Virus record (IMG/VR): IMGVR_UViG_3300025529_000003 | DNA from: a virus | Length of the DNA: 48,626 nt | Direction: 5' to 3' (one strand) | In this document: positions 1 to 23,648 of the stretch, piece by piece | Position numbering within the stretch: position 1 is the stretch's first letter | Layout: the number at the start of each line of letters is the position of its first letter | Notes under the pieces: generated by a model | The model's database searches: none | Told to the model about the DNA's origin: nothing | The model's input: only the letters and a program-made list of their open reading frames with translations | Made by a program: the position numbers and the translations under genes

Positions 1-127
1 ACCTTCAAATAATTCTGGATTTCCACGATCAACTCGGGATCGCGGATCGGCTGGACTTCGCGCATATCACCACCTCGCTTGAAAAATGGCAAAAGAAAAA
101 GCACCCGCAGGTGCTACAAAATTTCAA
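1..127. repeat. Terminal direct repeat copy 1, identical to 48500-48626. Assembly overlap of a circular molecule.
   Basis: Read directly: both copies run accttcaaataattctgg...gtgctacaaaatttcaa. The repeat splits the recombinase ORF; its first 65 nt and RBS recur at 1-76. Confidence 0.95.
91..116 (-). terminator. Intrinsic terminator between the Cys-rich gene and the recombinase gene.
   Basis: Minus strand AGCACC-tgcg-GGTGCT followed by TTTTTCTTTTG. Confidence 0.7.
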
Positions 128-3973: not shown

Positions 3974-4783
3974 TCAAAATAGCGTCAGTTGCCGGCCGCA
4001 ATGTTCCGCCGCGACCGGGTTGATCCAGAGGACTTCCTCTGTGGCCTTCCCGCGTTGTGCGAGGGCCTGCCTTGTCTCCCGGTGCCAATGGCGTAGTCGT
4101 TCATCATATAATCGGTTCGCATATCCCGATAACAGCACCGGGCCCGGGTGATCATCGAGCAGATCCAGTAACTCCAGATGCTCATCGTCCGTCATCTCGT
4201 GCCGATAAATCGCTCCGCTTCTGGTTTCGAGAACGTATGGCGGATCTGCGAATATCAAGACGTCCGGCCGCCGATAACGCTTGATCAACTCTGTCGCTTG
4301 CTGCTGTTCTATCTGTACCCCTCGCAGACGTTCGGTGTATGTCATGATTCTGTTCGGAATGTCGCCCCATTGATGCGCAGGTTGAGGGTCCGACACATCC
4401 ATGACACTCCTCCAACCCGTCCGTGCGCACATTTTCGGTCCCTGACCCATCCAGCACCGCACCAGGAACCTCCGCGCTCGCTCGAGCTCGTCCAACTCCC
4501 CCCCCGATTGGTAGGAGATGTAATATTCCTGCCGGCTGTACGGTGTCCAATAGATCAGCCGCGCCAGCTCGTCAGGTCGGTCCCGGATCACCTTAAAAAG
4601 GTTGACCACATCCCCGTCAAGGTCATTGATGGTTTCGAGCGTGGCCGGAGGTTTGTTGAAAAACACCGCGCCGCTGCCGAAAAACGGCTCGAGGTACGTT
4701 TGATGTGGCGGCATGTGCGAGATGATCCAGTCGGCCAGACTCCACTTCGATCCGGGATAGTGCAATATGCGTGGTGCGGTCAT
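3974..4783 (-). CDS. dam: Dam-family DNA N6-adenine methyltransferase.
   Basis: N-terminal YPGSKWSLADWI, FFGSGAV (AdoMet site) and FADPPY catalytic motif. Confidence 0.85.
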   Translation of the reverse strand: MTAPRILHYPGSKWSLADWIISHMPPHQTYLEPFFGSGAVFFNKPPATLETINDLDGDVVNLFKVIRDRPDELARLIYWTPYSRQEYYISYQSGGELDELERARRFLVRCWMGQGPKMCARTGWRSVMDVSDPQPAHQWGDIPNRIMTYTERLRGVQIEQQQATELIKRYRRPDVLIFADPPYVLETRSGAIYRHEMTDDEHLELLDLLDDHPGPVLLSGYANRLYDERLRHWHRETRQALAQRGKATEEVLWINPVAAEHCGRQLTLF

Positions 4784-18250: not shown

Positions 18251-18496
18251 TTATGCGGTTATTTGCAACCTCGAAATAACGGTTTCCGTTAGTTTGTCAT
18301 CAAAAAAAACTTCGACTGGTTCTCCGAGGACATTGGCAATTACTTTCAGTCGCTCAACGTCCAGGCTGGTGTCACCATTTGCAATGTGACGATAACCCTG
18401 AAGCGAAAGGCCCAGCGCATTCGCCAGCCTAGTCTTGGTCACACCTTTTGCCTTTCTAATTTTCTCTACATTTACGTGCACCACCCTAATCACCAC
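18251..18496 (-). CDS. Cro-like XRE HTH regulator. Exact start uncertain.
   Basis: KGVTKTRLANALGLSLQGYRHIANG. Divergent from the repressor gene. Confidence 0.7.
   Translation of the reverse strand: MVIRVVHVNVEKIRKAKGVTKTRLANALGLSLQGYRHIANGDTSLDVERLKVIANVLGEPVEVFFDDKLTETVISRLQITA
18277..18291. promoter_or_regulatory. Operator-like palindrome TAACG-N5-CGTTA, the remote copy at the 3' end of cro.
   Basis: taacggtttccgtta. Confidence 0.55.
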
Positions 18497-18503
18497 CTTC
18501 CAA

Positions 18504-18518
18504 CTAACGCGATCCGTT
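18504..18518. promoter_or_regulatory. Operator-like palindrome TAACG-N5-CGTTA.
   Basis: taacgcgatccgtta in the cI/cro intergenic region. Confidence 0.6.
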
Positions 18519-18530
18519 ACTTAAATAATA

Positions 18531-18545
18531 CTAACGACTTCCGTT
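18531..18545. promoter_or_regulatory. Operator-like palindrome TAACG-N5-CGTTA.
   Basis: taacgacttccgtta in the cI/cro intergenic region. Confidence 0.6.
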
Positions 18546-18632
18546 AGTGTCAAGTGCTTTTTCTCATTTTTCGTTATTTATATATCGTTTTACGTTAGCT
18601 GTTGGTATCATATTCGCAAGGAGGCAAGAGCG

Positions 18633-18995
18633 ATGTCGTCAGTAGGCGAGAGAATTAAGCGGCTCCGCAAGGAGAGAGGATGGACGCAAGCCGAGTTGGC
18701 TAAGCGAGTGAATAAATCTCCCCAGGTAATTTCAAATTGGGAACGTGATTATACTTCACTTTCCCATGATGATGTCGCTGGGCTCGCGAGAGCATTTCAA
18801 GTACCAGCAGATGTGATACTTGAGACTTCAAAAACCTCAGAAAATCAACTGAACCGCGATCTAATGATCACGGCTCAAAAAATCGAAGAACTTGCAAGGA
18901 AATATAATTTAAAAGTCTCAGACCCTGAGTTCCAAGAAATACTTACGAAGGCGTTTGATCTCGCACTCATTGTGAACAGAAAGGAGACGGAGTAA
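18633..18995 (+). CDS. cI-like XRE repressor, 120 aa, with no S24 peptidase domain.
   Basis: RKERGWTQAELAKRVNKSPQVISNWERD HTH. AAGGAGG RBS. Short helical C-terminus only. Confidence 0.75.
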   Translation: MSSVGERIKRLRKERGWTQAELAKRVNKSPQVISNWERDYTSLSHDDVAGLARAFQVPADVILETSKTSENQLNRDLMITAQKIEELARKYNLKVSDPEFQEILTKAFDLALIVNRKETE

Positions 18996-19152
18996 TTCAT
19001 TCAACAACTGTTCCTTAAAGACAAATACATTGTTCTGGCCCTTCGCCATACAAGTCACCGTCCTGTATGTATTAAACTAGAGCAACAGCGACGTATATAA
19101 GAACGGCTTCTTAGAAAGACCGCTAAGCGGGAATTTTTGTGAGGTAGTTATT

Positions 19153-19181
19153 ATTTTACGAACATATGTTTGTGTTTTCAA
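19153..19181 (-). promoter_or_regulatory. Near-consensus sigma-A promoter with a LexA (Cheo) box in the spacer, firing antisense toward cI and cro.
   Basis: Minus strand TTGAAA-17-TAAAAT. Box CGAACATATGTTTG at 19159-19172. Confidence 0.6.
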
Positions 19182-19217
19182 GGAAAATTATTCGGTAGCA
19201 CTGCAAGGGGTTACGGC

Positions 19218-19463
19218 ATGGAGTTCTACCCGGACAAATGCCGCGTCCCCGAATTGTTGCGCGAAAGGCATATTGAGCCAGTCGATTTTTATACAGACCC
19301 ACGGATCAATTGGTCAAAGCAGCAATACTACGCTTACGCTAGCGGACGCAGAAAGATGTCAGCTAGTCAGATGAAGAAATGTGGACACTACTTTGGCCTT
19401 CCCATGGATGATATTTACACATGGAAAGTGATTCCTTCGCGCAAAGGGGCCGGTAAAAAATGA
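19218..19463 (+). CDS. Hypothetical 81-aa lysogeny-module protein.
   Basis: ORF 19170..19463 trimmed to the ATG after AAGGGG. Confidence 0.5.
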   Translation: MEFYPDKCRVPELLRERHIEPVDFYTDPRINWSKQQYYAYASGRRKMSASQMKKCGHYFGLPMDDIYTWKVIPSRKGAGKK

Positions 19464-19583
19464 GAACAGTAATATTCGCTGTTCTCAGCCCGGGAGGTAA
19501 AACAATTGTATTACCGCGCTAATAATAAGACAATGTTAGCGTTTACCATTTATTCATAAACTATTTGTAATCAAGGAGGAGAT

Positions 19584-19799
19584 ATGATGATCATATTTAT
19601 CTTAATTTGTCTAGTGGTTGGTCTTTTCCTCGGCGTAATTTTAGCCGGCGGAAATGGAATAATCACGCTTTTTTCCGATCCTATCGAGTGCCCAGCATGC
19701 GGTCGAAAGATCAAGGTCCGGGGCAATTCTACGCGCTGCTATAAATGCAGGTCGAAATTGTACAAGCATGCGAACGGTCAATATATGGTTCGGCAGTAA
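19584..19799 (+). CDS. Membrane-anchored zinc-ribbon protein, 71 aa.
   Basis: N-terminal TM segment IIFILICLVVGLFLGVILAG. CPACG...CYKC. AAGGAGG RBS. Confidence 0.6.
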   Translation: MMIIFILICLVVGLFLGVILAGGNGIITLFSDPIECPACGRKIKVRGNSTRCYKCRSKLYKHANGQYMVRQ

Positions 19800-19826
19800 A
19801 CAGGATGATAGACTGGGGTCTTATGA

Positions 19827-20255
19827 ATGAACGATTTTTTTGATTGGGACGACTATGAAAGAACCGGGTTCCATTTTTTGAACAAAGCCAAAGAATATCA
19901 GGATGATCCTTATCAACTTCATTTTGTGTATAACGGATTCATAAAATTGTTTTTTAAACATAGAAATCGCGTTCCTGATGCAGAAGACAAACTAATAACG
20001 ATATGTAAATTAGACATTGAATTGTTCCCGAAATTTCGTGAAGCATGGTTTGAGAAGAACCCAGATTATATATCTCTTCCACGAATACCATCATTTCAAC
20101 GCCTCATTCAGGTATATGAAAAACGAAACCAGATAAATGAAGCAATTCAAATATGCAAGCTGGCAATTCAATATGGATTGGATGATGGTACAAAGGGCGG
20201 ATTTGAAGCTAGATTAGAAAAATTGAGGAAAAAGCAAATCAAGGTAAGCTGGTGA
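19827..20255 (+). CDS. Hypothetical 142-aa protein, AT-rich accessory gene.
   Basis: ORF with helical-repeat-like composition. No family recognised. Confidence 0.5.
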   Translation: MNDFFDWDDYERTGFHFLNKAKEYQDDPYQLHFVYNGFIKLFFKHRNRVPDAEDKLITICKLDIELFPKFREAWFEKNPDYISLPRIPSFQRLIQVYEKRNQINEAIQICKLAIQYGLDDGTKGGFEARLEKLRKKQIKVSW

Positions 20256-20545
20256 TAGTGTTGGCTCTTCGATATCGTCTCCAGGTAAACACGTCTCCGA
20301 AAAAGATCGCCATCTTCAAACCTGACGAGCAGCATTTGCCTGACGAGAAAAAGACGTTCTTCGCTGAACTCTCGTTCGGTACATACGACGAGTCGACCGT
20401 CATGCTGACAGCCGACGATCTCATTGTCGACGAAAACGGCCGGATCGGCATCGATCGCGAACTGCTCAACCAGCTACCGGCCGGCGCGAGGTTCGGAATT
20501 ACATCTGAGGAGCTGGTGAAGTTCAAAAATCGCTTCCGCCCGTAA
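20252..20545 (+). CDS. Hypothetical 97-aa protein.
   Basis: GTG start overlaps the upstream stop (GTGA). Confidence 0.4.
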   Translation: MIVLALRYRLQVNTSPKKIAIFKPDEQHLPDEKKTFFAELSFGTYDESTVMLTADDLIVDENGRIGIDRELLNQLPAGARFGITSEELVKFKNRFRP

Positions 20546-20557
20546 GGGCTTTTTTTC
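20538..20557 (+). terminator. Weak intrinsic terminator.
   Basis: GCCC-gtaa-GGGC followed by TTTTTTTC. Confidence 0.4.
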
Positions 20558-20601
20558 TCCTGTACTATCCGAACATTTATTCGCTTCAAGGAGGGATTAT
20601 C

Positions 20602-22089
20602 GTGGCGTCGTTTGAACGAAGGGGGAAAAATTCATGGCGTCTGGTCCTCTCTCTCGGGTTTGGACCGAACGGAAAACGGATGAAGCAGTATCAATCGCTG
20701 GTAATAGAAGATCCAGCACTGCAACAGTCCATCTCGGCTCTGGATGAGATCGATCCCAATATTCTCAAGTCAGCAAATAATCTGAACCGATTTATCGAAA
20801 GTAAAGAGGCGACTTCGACGGCGATTCGGCATGCGAAAAAGTTGAACCAACATTTCCAGGACGAATACCTCAAGTTTAAGTATCAGGCCGAAACCGGATC
20901 GCTTGTGAGGGTAAAAAAGATCAAGTTCGCGGACTTCGTAGAAATTTGGCGCGAAAAATACGGATCAGATCCAGAAAAGCTCTCACCAGCGACTTACTCC
21001 AACTACAACATCGTCATCAATTCACGGCTCATTCCGGCTTTTGGACATTTCTGGATCGATGAGATCACGCCGCTCATGATCCTGTCGTTTCTAAAAGATT
21101 TGGAGAAACCAGGCGCCAGGCTGACTCCGAAAATGTCCGGAACACTGACCGAACGGCAAAAGGAAAAACTGATGAAACCGCTCGATGTAGGAACGATCGG
21201 GTATATTTATCGCGTTCTGAAGAATATACTCAACCGAGCAGTAGAATGGAAACTACTCGCGGAGAATCCGATGAACGGTATTCCGAAACCCGGCGAAAAA
21301 GACCCTAAGAGAAAGCTTCTCGAGCAGCGGGAAAATCCACAGTTTTATGACGAGGCCGAAGCTCAGCGTGTCGTCGATGCGCTCTACAAAGAGTCACGTA
21401 AATGGAGACTCCTGATATTGGGGTCCATGATTGGCGGCGCCCGTCGGGGAGAACTGAACGGTTTGGAATGGCCGTACGTCCATTTTGATGAAGGGTATAT
21501 TTCCATCGAGAACAATATCCCTCTATCGAAAGACGGGAAAGCAGTTGAGAAAGGCCCAAAGTCGATCGCATCATACCGCAACATAGACATGCCGAAATGG
21601 TACATGGATGAGCTGCGGGCGTACAAAGATGAGTGGAATCACGAGAAGGAACAGCTCGAGGCTGAGGGGCTCTGGCAAGGTGGAGACCGTCAGTACGTCT
21701 TCCATAACGGCACCGGCAAGCCGTACTACTACCAGCACCCATCAAAGTGGTGGAAACGGTTCTGTGAGCGGCATGGCATCCGATACATCAAATTCCATGG
21801 CCTCCGGCACAGCTCCGGTACACTGCTGCTTGAAGACGAAGACGTGTCGAATTTTGATTCGATCTTGAAGGTAATCCAGCAACGGCTCGGCCATTCTAGG
21901 TTTTCCACTACGTCGGACATTTATGTGCATGTCACGAAAAAAGTCAAGCGGCGTGCTGCCGGCAAATATGACAAGTTCGCCAGAGGTAATGCTACCATTC
22001 CGAGGGGGGACAATGGGGACAAATTGGGGACACAAATCTTCGGAAATGATCATTTCGAATCGTCCGAAAACAACCTCCCATTGCAATAA
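20602..22089 (+). CDS. int: Tyrosine integrase, large, 495 aa.
   Basis: AGGAGGG RBS with a GTG start. Catalytic ARRGELNGL (R), HGLRHSSGT (HxxR), LGHSRFSTTSDIYVHV (H...Y). Confidence 0.9.
   Translation: MASFERRGKNSWRLVLSLGFGPNGKRMKQYQSLVIEDPALQQSISALDEIDPNILKSANNLNRFIESKEATSTAIRHAKKLNQHFQDEYLKFKYQAETGSLVRVKKIKFADFVEIWREKYGSDPEKLSPATYSNYNIVINSRLIPAFGHFWIDEITPLMILSFLKDLEKPGARLTPKMSGTLTERQKEKLMKPLDVGTIGYIYRVLKNILNRAVEWKLLAENPMNGIPKPGEKDPKRKLLEQRENPQFYDEAEAQRVVDALYKESRKWRLLILGSMIGGARRGELNGLEWPYVHFDEGYISIENNIPLSKDGKAVEKGPKSIASYRNIDMPKWYMDELRAYKDEWNHEKEQLEAEGLWQGGDRQYVFHNGTGKPYYYQHPSKWWKRFCERHGIRYIKFHGLRHSSGTLLLEDEDVSNFDSILKVIQQRLGHSRFSTTSDIYVHVTKKVKRRAAGKYDKFARGNATIPRGDNGDKLGTQIFGNDHFESSENNLPLQ
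22016..22048 (+). repeat. Arm-type repeat cluster (3x GGGGACA) inside the 3' end of int.
   Basis: GGGGACAAT GGGGACAAATT GGGGACACAAA. Confidence 0.6.
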
Positions 22090-22344: not shown

Positions 22345-22373
22345 AGAAAAACGGCCGCGGGGATGCCCGCGGC
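22345..22373 (-). terminator. Intrinsic terminator after the yolD-like gene.
   Basis: Minus strand GCCGCGGG-catc-CCCGCGGC followed by CGTTTTTCTG. Confidence 0.7.
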
Positions 22374-22389
22374 TTTCGCATGTTCTGGA

Positions 22390-22749
22390 TCAAAATTCCG
22401 GCCGTTCCGCTGTCAGAATATCCAAAAACGGCACCTTCTCGATCGTAGTGAAATGCTTGATATGCACCCGACGCGTTTCCGGATCCATCTTCACGATTTT
22501 TCCCCGGATCGGGATGTCGCGGCCCCAGATCGTGATCTCGAGTTCGCGGCCCTCCTCCATCGCATCCTGCAGCCTGACGGCCAACTCCTCGAGCTCGAAT
22601 TCGTCGCGGACCGGTCTCTTCGGTTTTGCCATGGCAATTTCCTCCCTGTGGCGCACAAGCGCCTCTTTGTGTTCTGGAATGATCATCCGACTTCCTTCCC
22701 ACAGTAAGTTACTTCCTGGTGACAATTTCGTGAGCTTGATTCCAACCAC
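22390..22749 (-). CDS. yolD: YolD-like protein. Start uncertain: GTG at 22749 or ATG at 22686.
   Basis: W-x4-MIIPEHKEAL...VRDEFELEEL pattern typical of YolD. The first codon of the track ORF lies inside the promoter -35. Confidence 0.6.
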   Translation of the reverse strand: MVGIKLTKLSPGSNLLWEGSRMIIPEHKEALVRHREEIAMAKPKRPVRDEFELEELAVRLQDAMEEGRELEITIWGRDIPIRGKIVKMDPETRRVHIKHFTTIEKVPFLDILTAERPEF

Positions 22750-22765: not shown

Positions 22766-22794
22766 ATTATATACGAACATATGTTCTGTTTCAA
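22766..22794 (-). promoter_or_regulatory. Consensus sigma-A promoter with a LexA (Cheo) box in the spacer.
   Basis: Minus strand TTGAAA-17-TATAAT. Box CGAACATATGTTCT at 22774-22787. Confidence 0.7.
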
Positions 22795-22994: not shown

Positions 22995-23648
22995 TCAAAG
23001 CTTATTTTTAGGTTTCCACTCCCAAATATTGATTCTTGATGCATATTTGTTTCGAATGTATTCGCCAAACGCATTTTTTCTTGCTCCCGCAGGGGAATAT
23101 TTATTCTTTACAACACCCGTTAACAAATCACATATTTGAACAACATCGCATTTATCCGATGCGGTTGATTTGCAGGACTTAACACTATAATTATGACCTT
23201 CCAGAAAAGCCTTCTCATTTAAATTACGCATTAAGTAACTATAAAAGTTATCTTCTTTTAATCTGTTTTTTTCGTCAGGGCGAATATGTATGTCATCAAC
23301 TCTTTTTTTTATATGGTGATAAATCAATAATTCAGAAAACTTGTTATATGCAAGGTGTTTTTTATATCCAAAGTACTTTAGATCAACGTCTTCCTTCCTA
23401 ATCACAATGGATTTAAAACTAAAATAACACCGAAACGCCTCATCTAATACCTCTTTATATACTCTATCTCGGAAGTTAGAAAAAACTTGAAAATGAATTT
23501 CATCATAGAATTTATTTTTATCCCTAACAGAGCGAACGATATCAAGTAGCTTACGCTTAACAGAGGAAGTCATGCAAAGAATACCAACAATAAAAATGTC
23601 ATCTCCTGGTTCCCCGGACTCATCCTGAAATACCCAATACTTTGACAT
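22995..23648 (-). CDS. DUF3800-family protein.
   Basis: N-terminal VFQDESGEPG...FIVGIL and C-terminal VQICDLLTGVV. GGAGGAG RBS. Strongly AT-rich gene. Confidence 0.65.
   Translation of the reverse strand: MSKYWVFQDESGEPGDDIFIVGILCMTSSVKRKLLDIVRSVRDKNKFYDEIHFQVFSNFRDRVYKEVLDEAFRCYFSFKSIVIRKEDVDLKYFGYKKHLAYNKFSELLIYHHIKKRVDDIHIRPDEKNRLKEDNFYSYLMRNLNEKAFLEGHNYSVKSCKSTASDKCDVVQICDLLTGVVKNKYSPAGARKNAFGEYIRNKYASRINIWEWKPKNKL

Follow-up and report, generated by a model that had tools for sequence, protein, structure and literature searches.

In many temperate phages of the Bacillota the repressor is a short XRE-type protein that RecA is unable to cleave, and it is often unclear how these prophages detect DNA damage. 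The closest described system to the one reported here is the extended arbitrium module (Kabel et al., 10.1101/2025.11.23.689978), in which AimC is a repressor of 80–140 amino acids (aa) without a cleavage domain, AimL is cro-like, and AimX is encoded by an open reading frame (ORF) of 29–80 aa that runs towards aimC and in some cases overlaps it. Recoded and start-to-stop alleles in phi106 and phiW23 showed that antisense RNA contributes little (10.1101/2025.11.23.689978), and a LexA site upstream of phi106 aimX was verified by Aframian et al. with a non-cleavable LexA(ind−) and box mutations (10.1101/2021.09.20.460909). Here we describe a locus of similar layout in the virus record IMGVR_UViG_3300025529_000003, a stretch of 48,626 nucleotides (nt) referred to as the window, where a LexA-boxed promoter, termed P_sm, faces the gene of a cI-like repressor and precedes an ORF of 43 aa. 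An earlier note on this DNA, made from the sequence alone, had called such an antisense geometry less familiar; the verified phi106 site, which precedes a small gene running towards a short CI-like repressor gene, is a precedent.

The window locus is most likely a LexA-only, arbitrium-free version of the AimX–AimC–AimL switch. On balance we favour the reading that P_sm, its box, the 43-aa ORF and a terminator form one small SOS-inducible antirepressor gene convergent with cI. The sequence itself provides the promoter, the box, a ribosome site, the ORF and the terminator, the conservation of these elements, and the homology of cI to AimC; we infer that LexA binds the box, that P_sm is SOS-inducible, that the ORF is translated and that its product acts as an antirepressor through protein–protein contact. 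The locus would extend a very recently described mechanism past arbitrium and past Bacillus, and overturns nothing.

Comparison with described systems

In both the window and the AimX–AimC–AimL module, the repressor is a short protein (120 aa in the window) with a single helix-turn-helix (HTH), a helical C-terminal domain and no autocleavage domain, a divergent cro-like gene heads the early lytic operon, and a small ORF (43 aa in the window) is convergent with the repressor gene, the two overlapping at the 3′ end of the latter. In the phi106 family a LexA site immediately precedes the small ORF and so, at the sequence level, does the box in the window. The window cI is a sequence and fold homologue of the phi106 repressor and a homologue of the AimC of phage CUBc25, and the 43-aa protein is predicted to be helical, like AimX proteins. 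There are also clear differences. The window carries neither aimR nor aimP, and is thus not a full member of the extended arbitrium family. In the window a dedicated near-consensus sigma-A promoter, its spacer holding the LexA box, precedes the small gene; control would thus lie with LexA alone, where the arbitrium phages combine activation by AimR with repression by LexA. The probable host belongs to the Paenibacillaceae, not to Bacillus; the small protein has no sequence similarity to known AimX; the overlap is longer (78 nt, versus 30 bp in phi106); and a dedicated terminator lies inside cI. The locus most probably works like the phi106 AimX–AimC switch.

Indirect SOS induction, in which an uncleavable repressor is relieved by a LexA-repressed phage antirepressor gene, is also known from Tum of coliphage 186, the Gifsy/Fels antirepressors (PMC3121763) and Sar of phi3T/SPbeta (10.1101/2025.11.27.690993). 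Those genes, however, lie elsewhere in the genome, neither convergent with nor overlapping the repressor gene, their repressors have different folds (SroF is integrase-like), and Sar acts by DNA mimicry. No sequence relationship was found between the window 43-aa protein and the Tum, Gifsy or Sar antirepressors. The SinI–SinR pair of Bacillus subtilis (1b0n) offers another parallel, an XRE-type HTH repressor whose helical C-terminal oligomerisation domain is occupied by a small helical protein, but it is a host developmental switch in which sinI lies upstream of and co-directional with sinR and is not LexA-controlled. The lambda OOP RNA, from promoter pO, resembles the P_sm transcript in being short, terminator-defined and complementary to the 3′ end of a lysogeny regulator gene, with a LexA site in the promoter (PMC5869508, PMC2327240). 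OOP is, however, non-coding and targets cII rather than the maintenance repressor, whereas the predicted window transcript carries a conserved ribosome site and ORF, with protein-level conservation in L175 and L178, two of the related loci (designated here by L-numbers). Finally, ImmR–ImmA of ICEBs1 and similar pairs of an XRE repressor with a Peptidase_M78 protein share with the window a repressor lacking an S24 domain and an inactivator encoded immediately downstream; the inactivator there is a metalloprotease of 130–190 aa on the repressor strand, unlike anything in the window.

The promoter and its LexA box

P_sm is a sigma-A-type promoter on the minus strand (19153..19181) reading TTGAAA-ACACAAACATATGTTCG-TAAAAT, with a 17-nt spacer and agreement at 10 of 12 consensus positions; transcription is expected to start near 19146. 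Positions 4–17 of the spacer are filled by a predicted Cheo-type LexA box, CGAACATATGTTTG (19159..19172), which agrees with CGAAC-N4-GTTCG at 9 of the 10 specified positions and whose GTTT half-site also fits the B. subtilis LexA consensus, CGAACRNRYGTTYC. The earlier note had pointed to both elements, and both are present where it placed them, in a conserved promoter that faces cI. LexA of the Bacillota, the Paenibacillaceae included, recognises boxes of the Cheo type.

Boxes with at most one mismatch occur 10 times in the window, compared with 2.9 expected, a number reached in none of 100 shuffles. The composite pattern TTGA-N2-8-AAC-N4-GTTC-N0-4-TAnnnT was found exactly twice (19153–19181 and 22766–22794, both on the minus strand) and in none of 100 shuffled sequences. 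Neither the window nor its relatives contained a plus-strand promoter of comparable quality overlapping the box, and an operator-motif scan of the window found no cI operator near P_sm. As far as sequence can tell, the LexA-boxed P_sm is no chance match; LexA would be expected to occupy the box and P_sm to be inducible by the SOS response.

The second composite match acts as an internal positive control, pointing to use of host LexA operators of this design by the phage. This promoter, TTGAAA-CAGAACATATGTTCGTA-TATAAT (22766..22794, minus strand), is built like P_sm, with a 17-nt spacer and the box AGAACATATGTTCG at 22774–22787, and is predicted to drive a YolD-like gene (22390–22686, minus strand; PF08863 YolD, E 3e-14) that adjoins the probable attP and is followed by a terminator at ∼22350–22385. 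It can serve as a control because YolD-type genes are classic members of the Bacillus SOS regulon; work by Au et al. in 2005 is reported to have placed B. subtilis yolD-type genes within the LexA regulon. No Y-family polymerase partner lies near this accessory gene.

The repressor and the switch region

The cI-like (AimC-like) repressor gene (18633..18995, plus strand) encodes 120 aa, comprising an XRE HTH, a linker and a two-helix C-terminal domain. Its family matches were to HTH families alone (HTH_3, E 4e-17), and no S24 domain was found in the family search. The AlphaFold2 model has a five-helix HTH (residues 4–62), a low-confidence linker and C-terminal helices at 70–90 and 98–117, in agreement with the earlier note's description of a non-cleavable repressor. 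Among PDB sequences, the second-best match to cI was 9sf2_A, ‘Phage Phi106 repressor in complex with AimX’ (E 5e-6, residues 3–102). Foldseek searches with the cI model returned 9sf2_A and SinR/SinI 1b0n, with SinR aligned across 110 columns, and phmmer matched cI to SinR with an E of 1e-3. The best full-length match in cultured phages was the HTH regulator of Bacillus cereus phage CUBc25 (32% identity), where the gene order is cro, HTH regulator, a convergent 64-aa coding sequence, aimP and aimR. Searches of viral contigs with cI and with the 81-aa protein encoded beyond P_sm gave HTH-level matches or nothing.

A tblastn search of the window with two ImmA-like proteins from related loci gave no significant match, and no ORF bearing an HEXXH motif lies near cI. 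The CUBc25 AimR, a single query from a diverse group of proteins, gave a best tblastn E of 3.6 in the window, and the longest minus-strand ORF in 19200–20600 encodes 116 aa, so that no aimR/aimP pair is evident there. Since cI lacks an autocleavage domain and no ImmA-type protease was found, SOS induction needs another route, as the earlier note had argued. With S24, ImmA and AimR not found, the phage appears to have no recognisable route from SOS to derepression other than P_sm.

The motif TAACG-N5-CGTTA occurs six times in the window, compared with 0.7 expected, and is clustered at 18277–18597, with sites at 18277–18291, 18505–18519, 18532–18546 and 18583–18597 (the last with one mismatch). 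The sites at 18505–18597 are in the cI–cro intergenic region, where they overlap P_R (TTGACA-17-TATTAT, 18525..18553, minus strand) and the cI promoter, which has an extended −10 (TGgTATCAT); both promoters are within this switch region (18505..18597). The site at 18277–18291 lies inside the 3′ end of cro. The motif is also present in L004, L005 and L056, and its copies are presumed to be the cI/Cro operators. The cro-like (AimL-like) HTH gene itself (18251..18484, minus strand; HTH_3, E 6e-11), whose frame can be extended to a GTG at 18496, is the first gene of the early lytic operon.

The small convergent ORF and its terminator

The 5′ leader of P_sm, ∼97 nt in length (19050..19146, minus strand), ends in the Shine–Dalgarno site AGGACGGTGA (19064..19055), with the core GGACGGTGA, spaced 5 nt from an ATG at 19049. 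The leader contains at most a weak 6-pair hairpin without covariation, and an Rfam search gave no match. The ORF that follows (18918..19049, minus strand) encodes the 43-aa candidate small antirepressor MAKGQNNVFVFKEQLLNELLRLLSVHNECEIKRLRKYFLELRV. As the earlier note had described, it has its own ribosome site and overlaps the 3′ end of cI: the overlap covers the final 78 nt of cI, and the final 26 codons of the ORF and of cI are reverse complements of each other, in register. Homologous ORFs are present in L004, L005, L170 and L182, and the ORF looks translated.

AlphaFold2 predicts two helices in the 43-aa protein (3–23 and 28–42; predicted local distance difference test, pLDDT, 80), and a membrane segment is absent. 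An identical protein has already been gene-called in a public library (P0012), and a search of a library of 1.8 billion proteins returned only the protein itself and one spurious coiled-coil match. The protein has no Pfam or PHROG match and no homology to Tum, Ant-type or Sar proteins. It also gave no match among PDB chains, including the known AimX in 9sf2; the missing similarity to AimX says little, because AimX proteins are reported to be highly divergent. SinI-style mimicry was considered and set aside, the similarity of the 43-aa protein to the cI C-terminal helices being not significant.

Forty nucleotides beyond the ORF stop and ∼155 nt into cI, within the linker codons, is an intrinsic-terminator-like hairpin with the tail UUGAUUUUCU (18839..18878, minus strand), a feature that the earlier note does not mention. 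The hairpin (18878..18849) has 13 pairs and a folding energy of −19.7 kcal/mol (z = −5.8). On the plus-strand side it is followed by an A-run, and so it would stop minus-strand transcripts only. With a hairpin and U-tract inside cI, the P_sm unit looks self-terminating, the predicted transcript running from ∼19146 to ∼18840, about 300 nt, and covering the last 156 nt of cI. P_sm and its ORF look like a compact ∼300-nt gene with its 3′ half in cI, and not like an entry point to the lytic operon. The earlier proposal that transcription from P_sm crosses the whole of cI into cro and the lytic operon is not supported, given this terminator-like hairpin, equivalents of which are found in L170, L004 and L005.

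Conservation in related loci

Relatives were sought via cI, the 81-aa protein and the integrase. A cI-alignment scan of genome and metagenome contigs gave 160 loci, most of them generic XRE genes because the search patterns derived from the HTH domain; only L024, L056 and L090 had the same architecture. Taking the searches together, the promoter, box, Shine–Dalgarno site and ORF recur in at least nine diverged loci, mostly together with the terminator. The composite promoter–box pattern was found on the same strand relative to cI in L004, L005, L056, L170–172 and L182, and a box was present at the equivalent position in every related locus examined. The position and strand of the promoter and box were kept where the flanking DNA had diverged or been replaced.

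L004 (cI 71% identical; TTGATA-17-TAAAAT) and L005 (cI 64% identical; TTGAAT-17-TAAAAT), both short contigs, have the box in the spacer and an ORF in the same frame with the same stop, preceded by GGA(C/A)GGTG(A/G), 5 nt and a start codon. The arrangement GGNGGTG, 5 nt, start codon is kept in L004, L005, L170, L173, L175 and L176, and in all loci GGNGGTG or GGAGG is followed after 5–6 nt by a start codon. The idea that the ORF is the product, raised in the earlier note as an aside, has thus become its best-supported part, with a correctly spaced Shine–Dalgarno site and start codon in every relative. The search with the 81-aa protein gave five more sequence types (L170–L179), each with a Cheo box that separates a minus-strand small ORF from the 81-aa gene. 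Gene callers had independently annotated the small ORF in L175, L177 and L178. Between the products from L175 and L178, 23 of 52 residues are identical, and 13 of these are encoded by different synonymous codons, which argues for selection on the protein. In L173 a 44-codon ORF lies wholly outside cI.

The layout also persists where neighbouring genes change. L182, with an integrase 95% identical to that of the window and a different cI, has TTGATA-17-TAAAAT with CGAACACTTGTTCT in the spacer, and its 53-aa ORF, preceded by a GGAGG site, shares 87 nt with the cI end. L056, on a Paenibacillus chromosome, is laid out in the same way, with a cro homologue; its cI C-terminus and its 50-aa ORF are different ones. 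In L005 there is no 81-aa gene and the integrase is directly next, which indicates that the box travels with cI and the small ORF. A hairpin and U-tract follow the ORF in L170, L004 and L005 (−11.2, −11.5 and −10.7, respectively). Local folds of L004 and L005 favoured the terminator hairpin but 94-nt folds did not, so conservation of the terminator is moderate rather than strict.

Several observations weigh against the antirepressor gene interpretation. L182 lacks a terminator after the ORF and has one in the leader instead, and the L176 ORF has just 11 codons. Box enrichment downstream of generic XRE genes is modest (3 versus 0.68 expected, P = 0.03). With 26 of the 43 codons complementary to cI codons on the other strand, an open, conserved frame in the overlap is partly a free consequence, and its co-variation with the cI C-terminus is trivial. 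Outside cI, the N-terminal parts of the ORFs are short and align poorly. Lastly, the 43-aa product matches no AimX, PHROG or PDB chain, so that it would be placed with AimX by architecture alone. Signals that are independent of the overlap are the Shine–Dalgarno site and start codon outside cI, the cases without overlap or with a different phase (L173, L175/L178) and the independent gene calls.

The leader hairpin of L182 (3175–3192, minus strand), GC-rich and with a T-run (ACCGCGGGCAACCGCGGT TTATTTT), separates the LexA-boxed promoter from the small ORF and could function as an attenuator or, for cI transcripts, as a stop that works in both directions. A weak remnant, CCGCTTAGCGG, is its counterpart in the window at ∼19108–19118. 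In L176 (∼60–100, minus strand) the Shine–Dalgarno site and ATG are present and the stop after 11 codons is beside a T6 run; this short ORF could be a decayed copy, an assembly error or a truly shorter peptide.

In some relatives a Peptidase_M78/ImmA-like gene follows cI instead, which implies that the inactivator cassette is exchangeable. L185, whose integrase is 75% identical, has a Peptidase_M78 gene (2116–2508) after cI in place of the small convergent ORF. Such genes were also observed after cI in L184 (2767–3117), L019, L041, L094 and L096, all phages related through the integrase or the cI HTH domain. L019 and L041 have a Cheo-like box, and in Aneurinibacillus and Pelosinus loci such a box precedes an ImmA-like gene. 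At the sequence level this indicates cassette exchange between two anti-repression strategies.

Proposed mechanism

In a lysogen, cI would dimerise, presumably via its two C-terminal helices, occupy the TAACG-N5-CGTTA operators and shut P_R, while host LexA on the Cheo box in the P_sm spacer would silence the near-consensus promoter. DNA damage would bring about RecA-stimulated self-cleavage of LexA and allow P_sm to fire, and its ∼300-nt transcript would be translated into a two-helix protein of 43 residues. This protein would bind the C-terminal oligomerisation domain of cI, in the way that AimX acts on AimC and SinI on SinR. Dimerisation and operator binding of cI would then be blocked, P_R would open and the lytic operon would start. 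Convergent transcription, and pairing of the transcript with the 3′ end of the cI messenger RNA (mRNA), would perhaps add a minor effect.

The window and its relatives in Paenibacillaceae prophages and metagenomes suggest a simpler, LexA-only small-antirepressor cassette outside Bacillus, which may be swapped for ImmA-type modules between close relatives. The cassette can be described by a recognition rule: a short XRE repressor, a convergent small ORF preceded by GGNGGTG, 5 nt and a start codon, and a Cheo box in or next to the promoter. The rule targets unannotated antirepressor genes of ∼40–55 aa, which gene callers usually miss and, if it is confirmed, the SOS inducibility of such prophages would become predictable from sequence alone. 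A more far-reaching idea, to which we give little credence, is that the stand-alone LexA-only unit represents the ancestral AimX–AimC–AimL core onto which arbitrium was later grafted. On this idea the antirepressor would be encoded in codon register opposite the cI dimerisation helix, so that every substitution in the helix would rewrite the inhibitor, and the transcript would be both mRNA and antisense RNA.

Alternative explanations

The earlier note had proposed that the SOS-induced minus-strand transcript is itself the effector, acting on cI as antisense RNA or by polymerase collision, and reading through into cro and the lytic operon so as to bypass the repressor. P_sm is indeed convergent with cI, and because there is no convincing terminator between the cI stop and P_sm, overlap between the cI mRNA and the P_sm transcript could reach ∼300 nt. 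There is a precedent in lambda OOP RNA, which is antisense to the cII 3′ end and has a LexA site in its promoter (PMC5869508, PMC2327240), aimX was itself first proposed to act as antisense (cited in 10.1101/2021.09.20.460909), and L182, with no terminator after its ORF, would fit as well. However, the −19.7 kcal/mol hairpin 40 nt past the ORF stop, with counterparts in three relatives, opposes read-through into cro, an RNA-only effector would need no conserved Shine–Dalgarno site, start codon and ORF, and the L173 ORF lies clear of cI altogether. In phiW23 and phi106, the AimX protein is active and the antisense RNA is not, an aimX transcript without a start codon having little or no effect in cis and in trans (10.1101/2025.11.23.689978), which speaks against antisense inhibition of cI as the main agent. 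We consider this explanation unlikely, while some interference at the cI 3′ end may accompany P_sm expression.

A second possibility is that the box mainly governs the plus-strand genes, from the 81-aa XRE-like gene to int, through an unrecognised promoter on that strand or by blocking transcription that reads through from the cI promoter. Every 81-aa homologue found lies 23–93 nt downstream of a Cheo box on the cI strand, and a second Cheo-like box (CGAAC-N4-ATTCG), conserved just upstream of the int ribosome site in four lineages, makes LexA control of lysogeny-strand genes plausible. On the other hand, no plus-strand promoter with at least 9 of 12 consensus positions was found over the box in the window or in most relatives, and the near-consensus promoter is invariably a minus-strand one. 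In L005 and L182 the box and this promoter are retained without an 81-aa gene, and in L177–179 the box ends 23 nt before the start codon, leaving no room for a promoter and leader. Control of the plus-strand genes as the main role of the box is thus a distinctly improbable reading.

About equally improbable is the suggestion that the 43-aa protein is SOS-induced but has another target, either in the host (as a division inhibitor or toxin-like moron) or among the phage regulators, such as the 81-aa protein. SOS-induced small proteins with host targets are common, and the 43-aa product is without detectable homology to characterised antirepressors. Against this, the gene always abuts the 3′ end of the gene for a short repressor without a cleavage domain, in immunity regions that are otherwise mosaic, the product has no membrane segment, and the phage has no other recognisable way of coupling SOS to derepression. 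That the promoter-like and box-like sequences are functionless chance matches in AT-rich intergenic DNA has a negligible probability: promoter-like sites overall are no more frequent than in shuffled sequence (5 versus 4.6 expected), but the composite pattern was never recovered by shuffling, its position and strand are conserved across loci with diverged or replaced flanks, and its twin drives the YolD-like gene.

Genomic context and other features

The window is an entire 48.6-kb metagenomic phage contig, with near-identical copies in ENA and JGI assemblies; megablast against cultured phages did not find close DNA relatives. The host is probably a member of the Paenibacillaceae, because the named relatives of the integrase are nearly all from Paenibacillus, Brevibacillus or Cohnella. 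Leftward from 18496 on the minus strand are the early lytic genes: the cro-like HTH gene, an HTH_17 Xis-like gene, another XRE gene, an AAA_23 gene and RecT. The plus-strand lysogeny genes are cI (18633–18995), the 81-aa ORF (19218–19463), three small ORFs and a tyrosine integrase (20602–22089), and the structural genes are on the minus strand past 23000.

The 81-aa XRE-like ORF (19218..19463, plus strand) starts 46 nt past the P_sm box and has a weak HTH_3 match; its homologue in L056 matches HTH_26 (E 8e-11). The family, found in L004, L056 and L170–L179, comprises proteins of 75–88 aa with the N-terminus M-x-(F/Y)-(R/Y)-P-(D/G)-K-C. No promoter of its own was detected for the 81-aa gene. 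The gene is absent from L005 and L182, where the box and small ORF are retained, and on this distribution it is an associated but dispensable neighbour.

The integrase-proximal box, CGAAC-N4-ATTCG, is situated 12–18 nt upstream of the integrase ribosome site in the four diverged lineages (window 20570–20583; L005 ∼775–788; L182 ∼4470–4483; L184/L185). In the window it comes directly after the terminator-like GCCC-GTAA-GGGC-T7. No clear promoter was found at this box, which may put int under SOS control or be a weaker LexA site.

Between the 81-aa gene and the integrase, an AT-rich patch (19500–20255) inside the otherwise GC-rich phage resembles a moron. Gene calls clash there: public pipelines call two 46-aa minus-strand genes, and a 142-aa plus-strand ORF (19827–20255) is open too. 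A minus-strand terminator-like hairpin, GAGAACAG...CTGTTCTC followed by a T-run, is located at ∼19463–19495. Between int and the YolD-like gene, the plus strand at ∼22166–22194 matches the 3′ part of a transfer RNA (tRNA), with the T-arm AGTGG-TTCGAGC-CCACT, the acceptor 3′ strand and CCA. ARAGORN found no complete tRNA at this position, and the stretch probably represents the attP core, with a tRNA gene as the integration site of the phage. A gene for a DUF3800 protein (E 2.5e-5; 22995–23648, minus strand) is situated between this region and the late genes.

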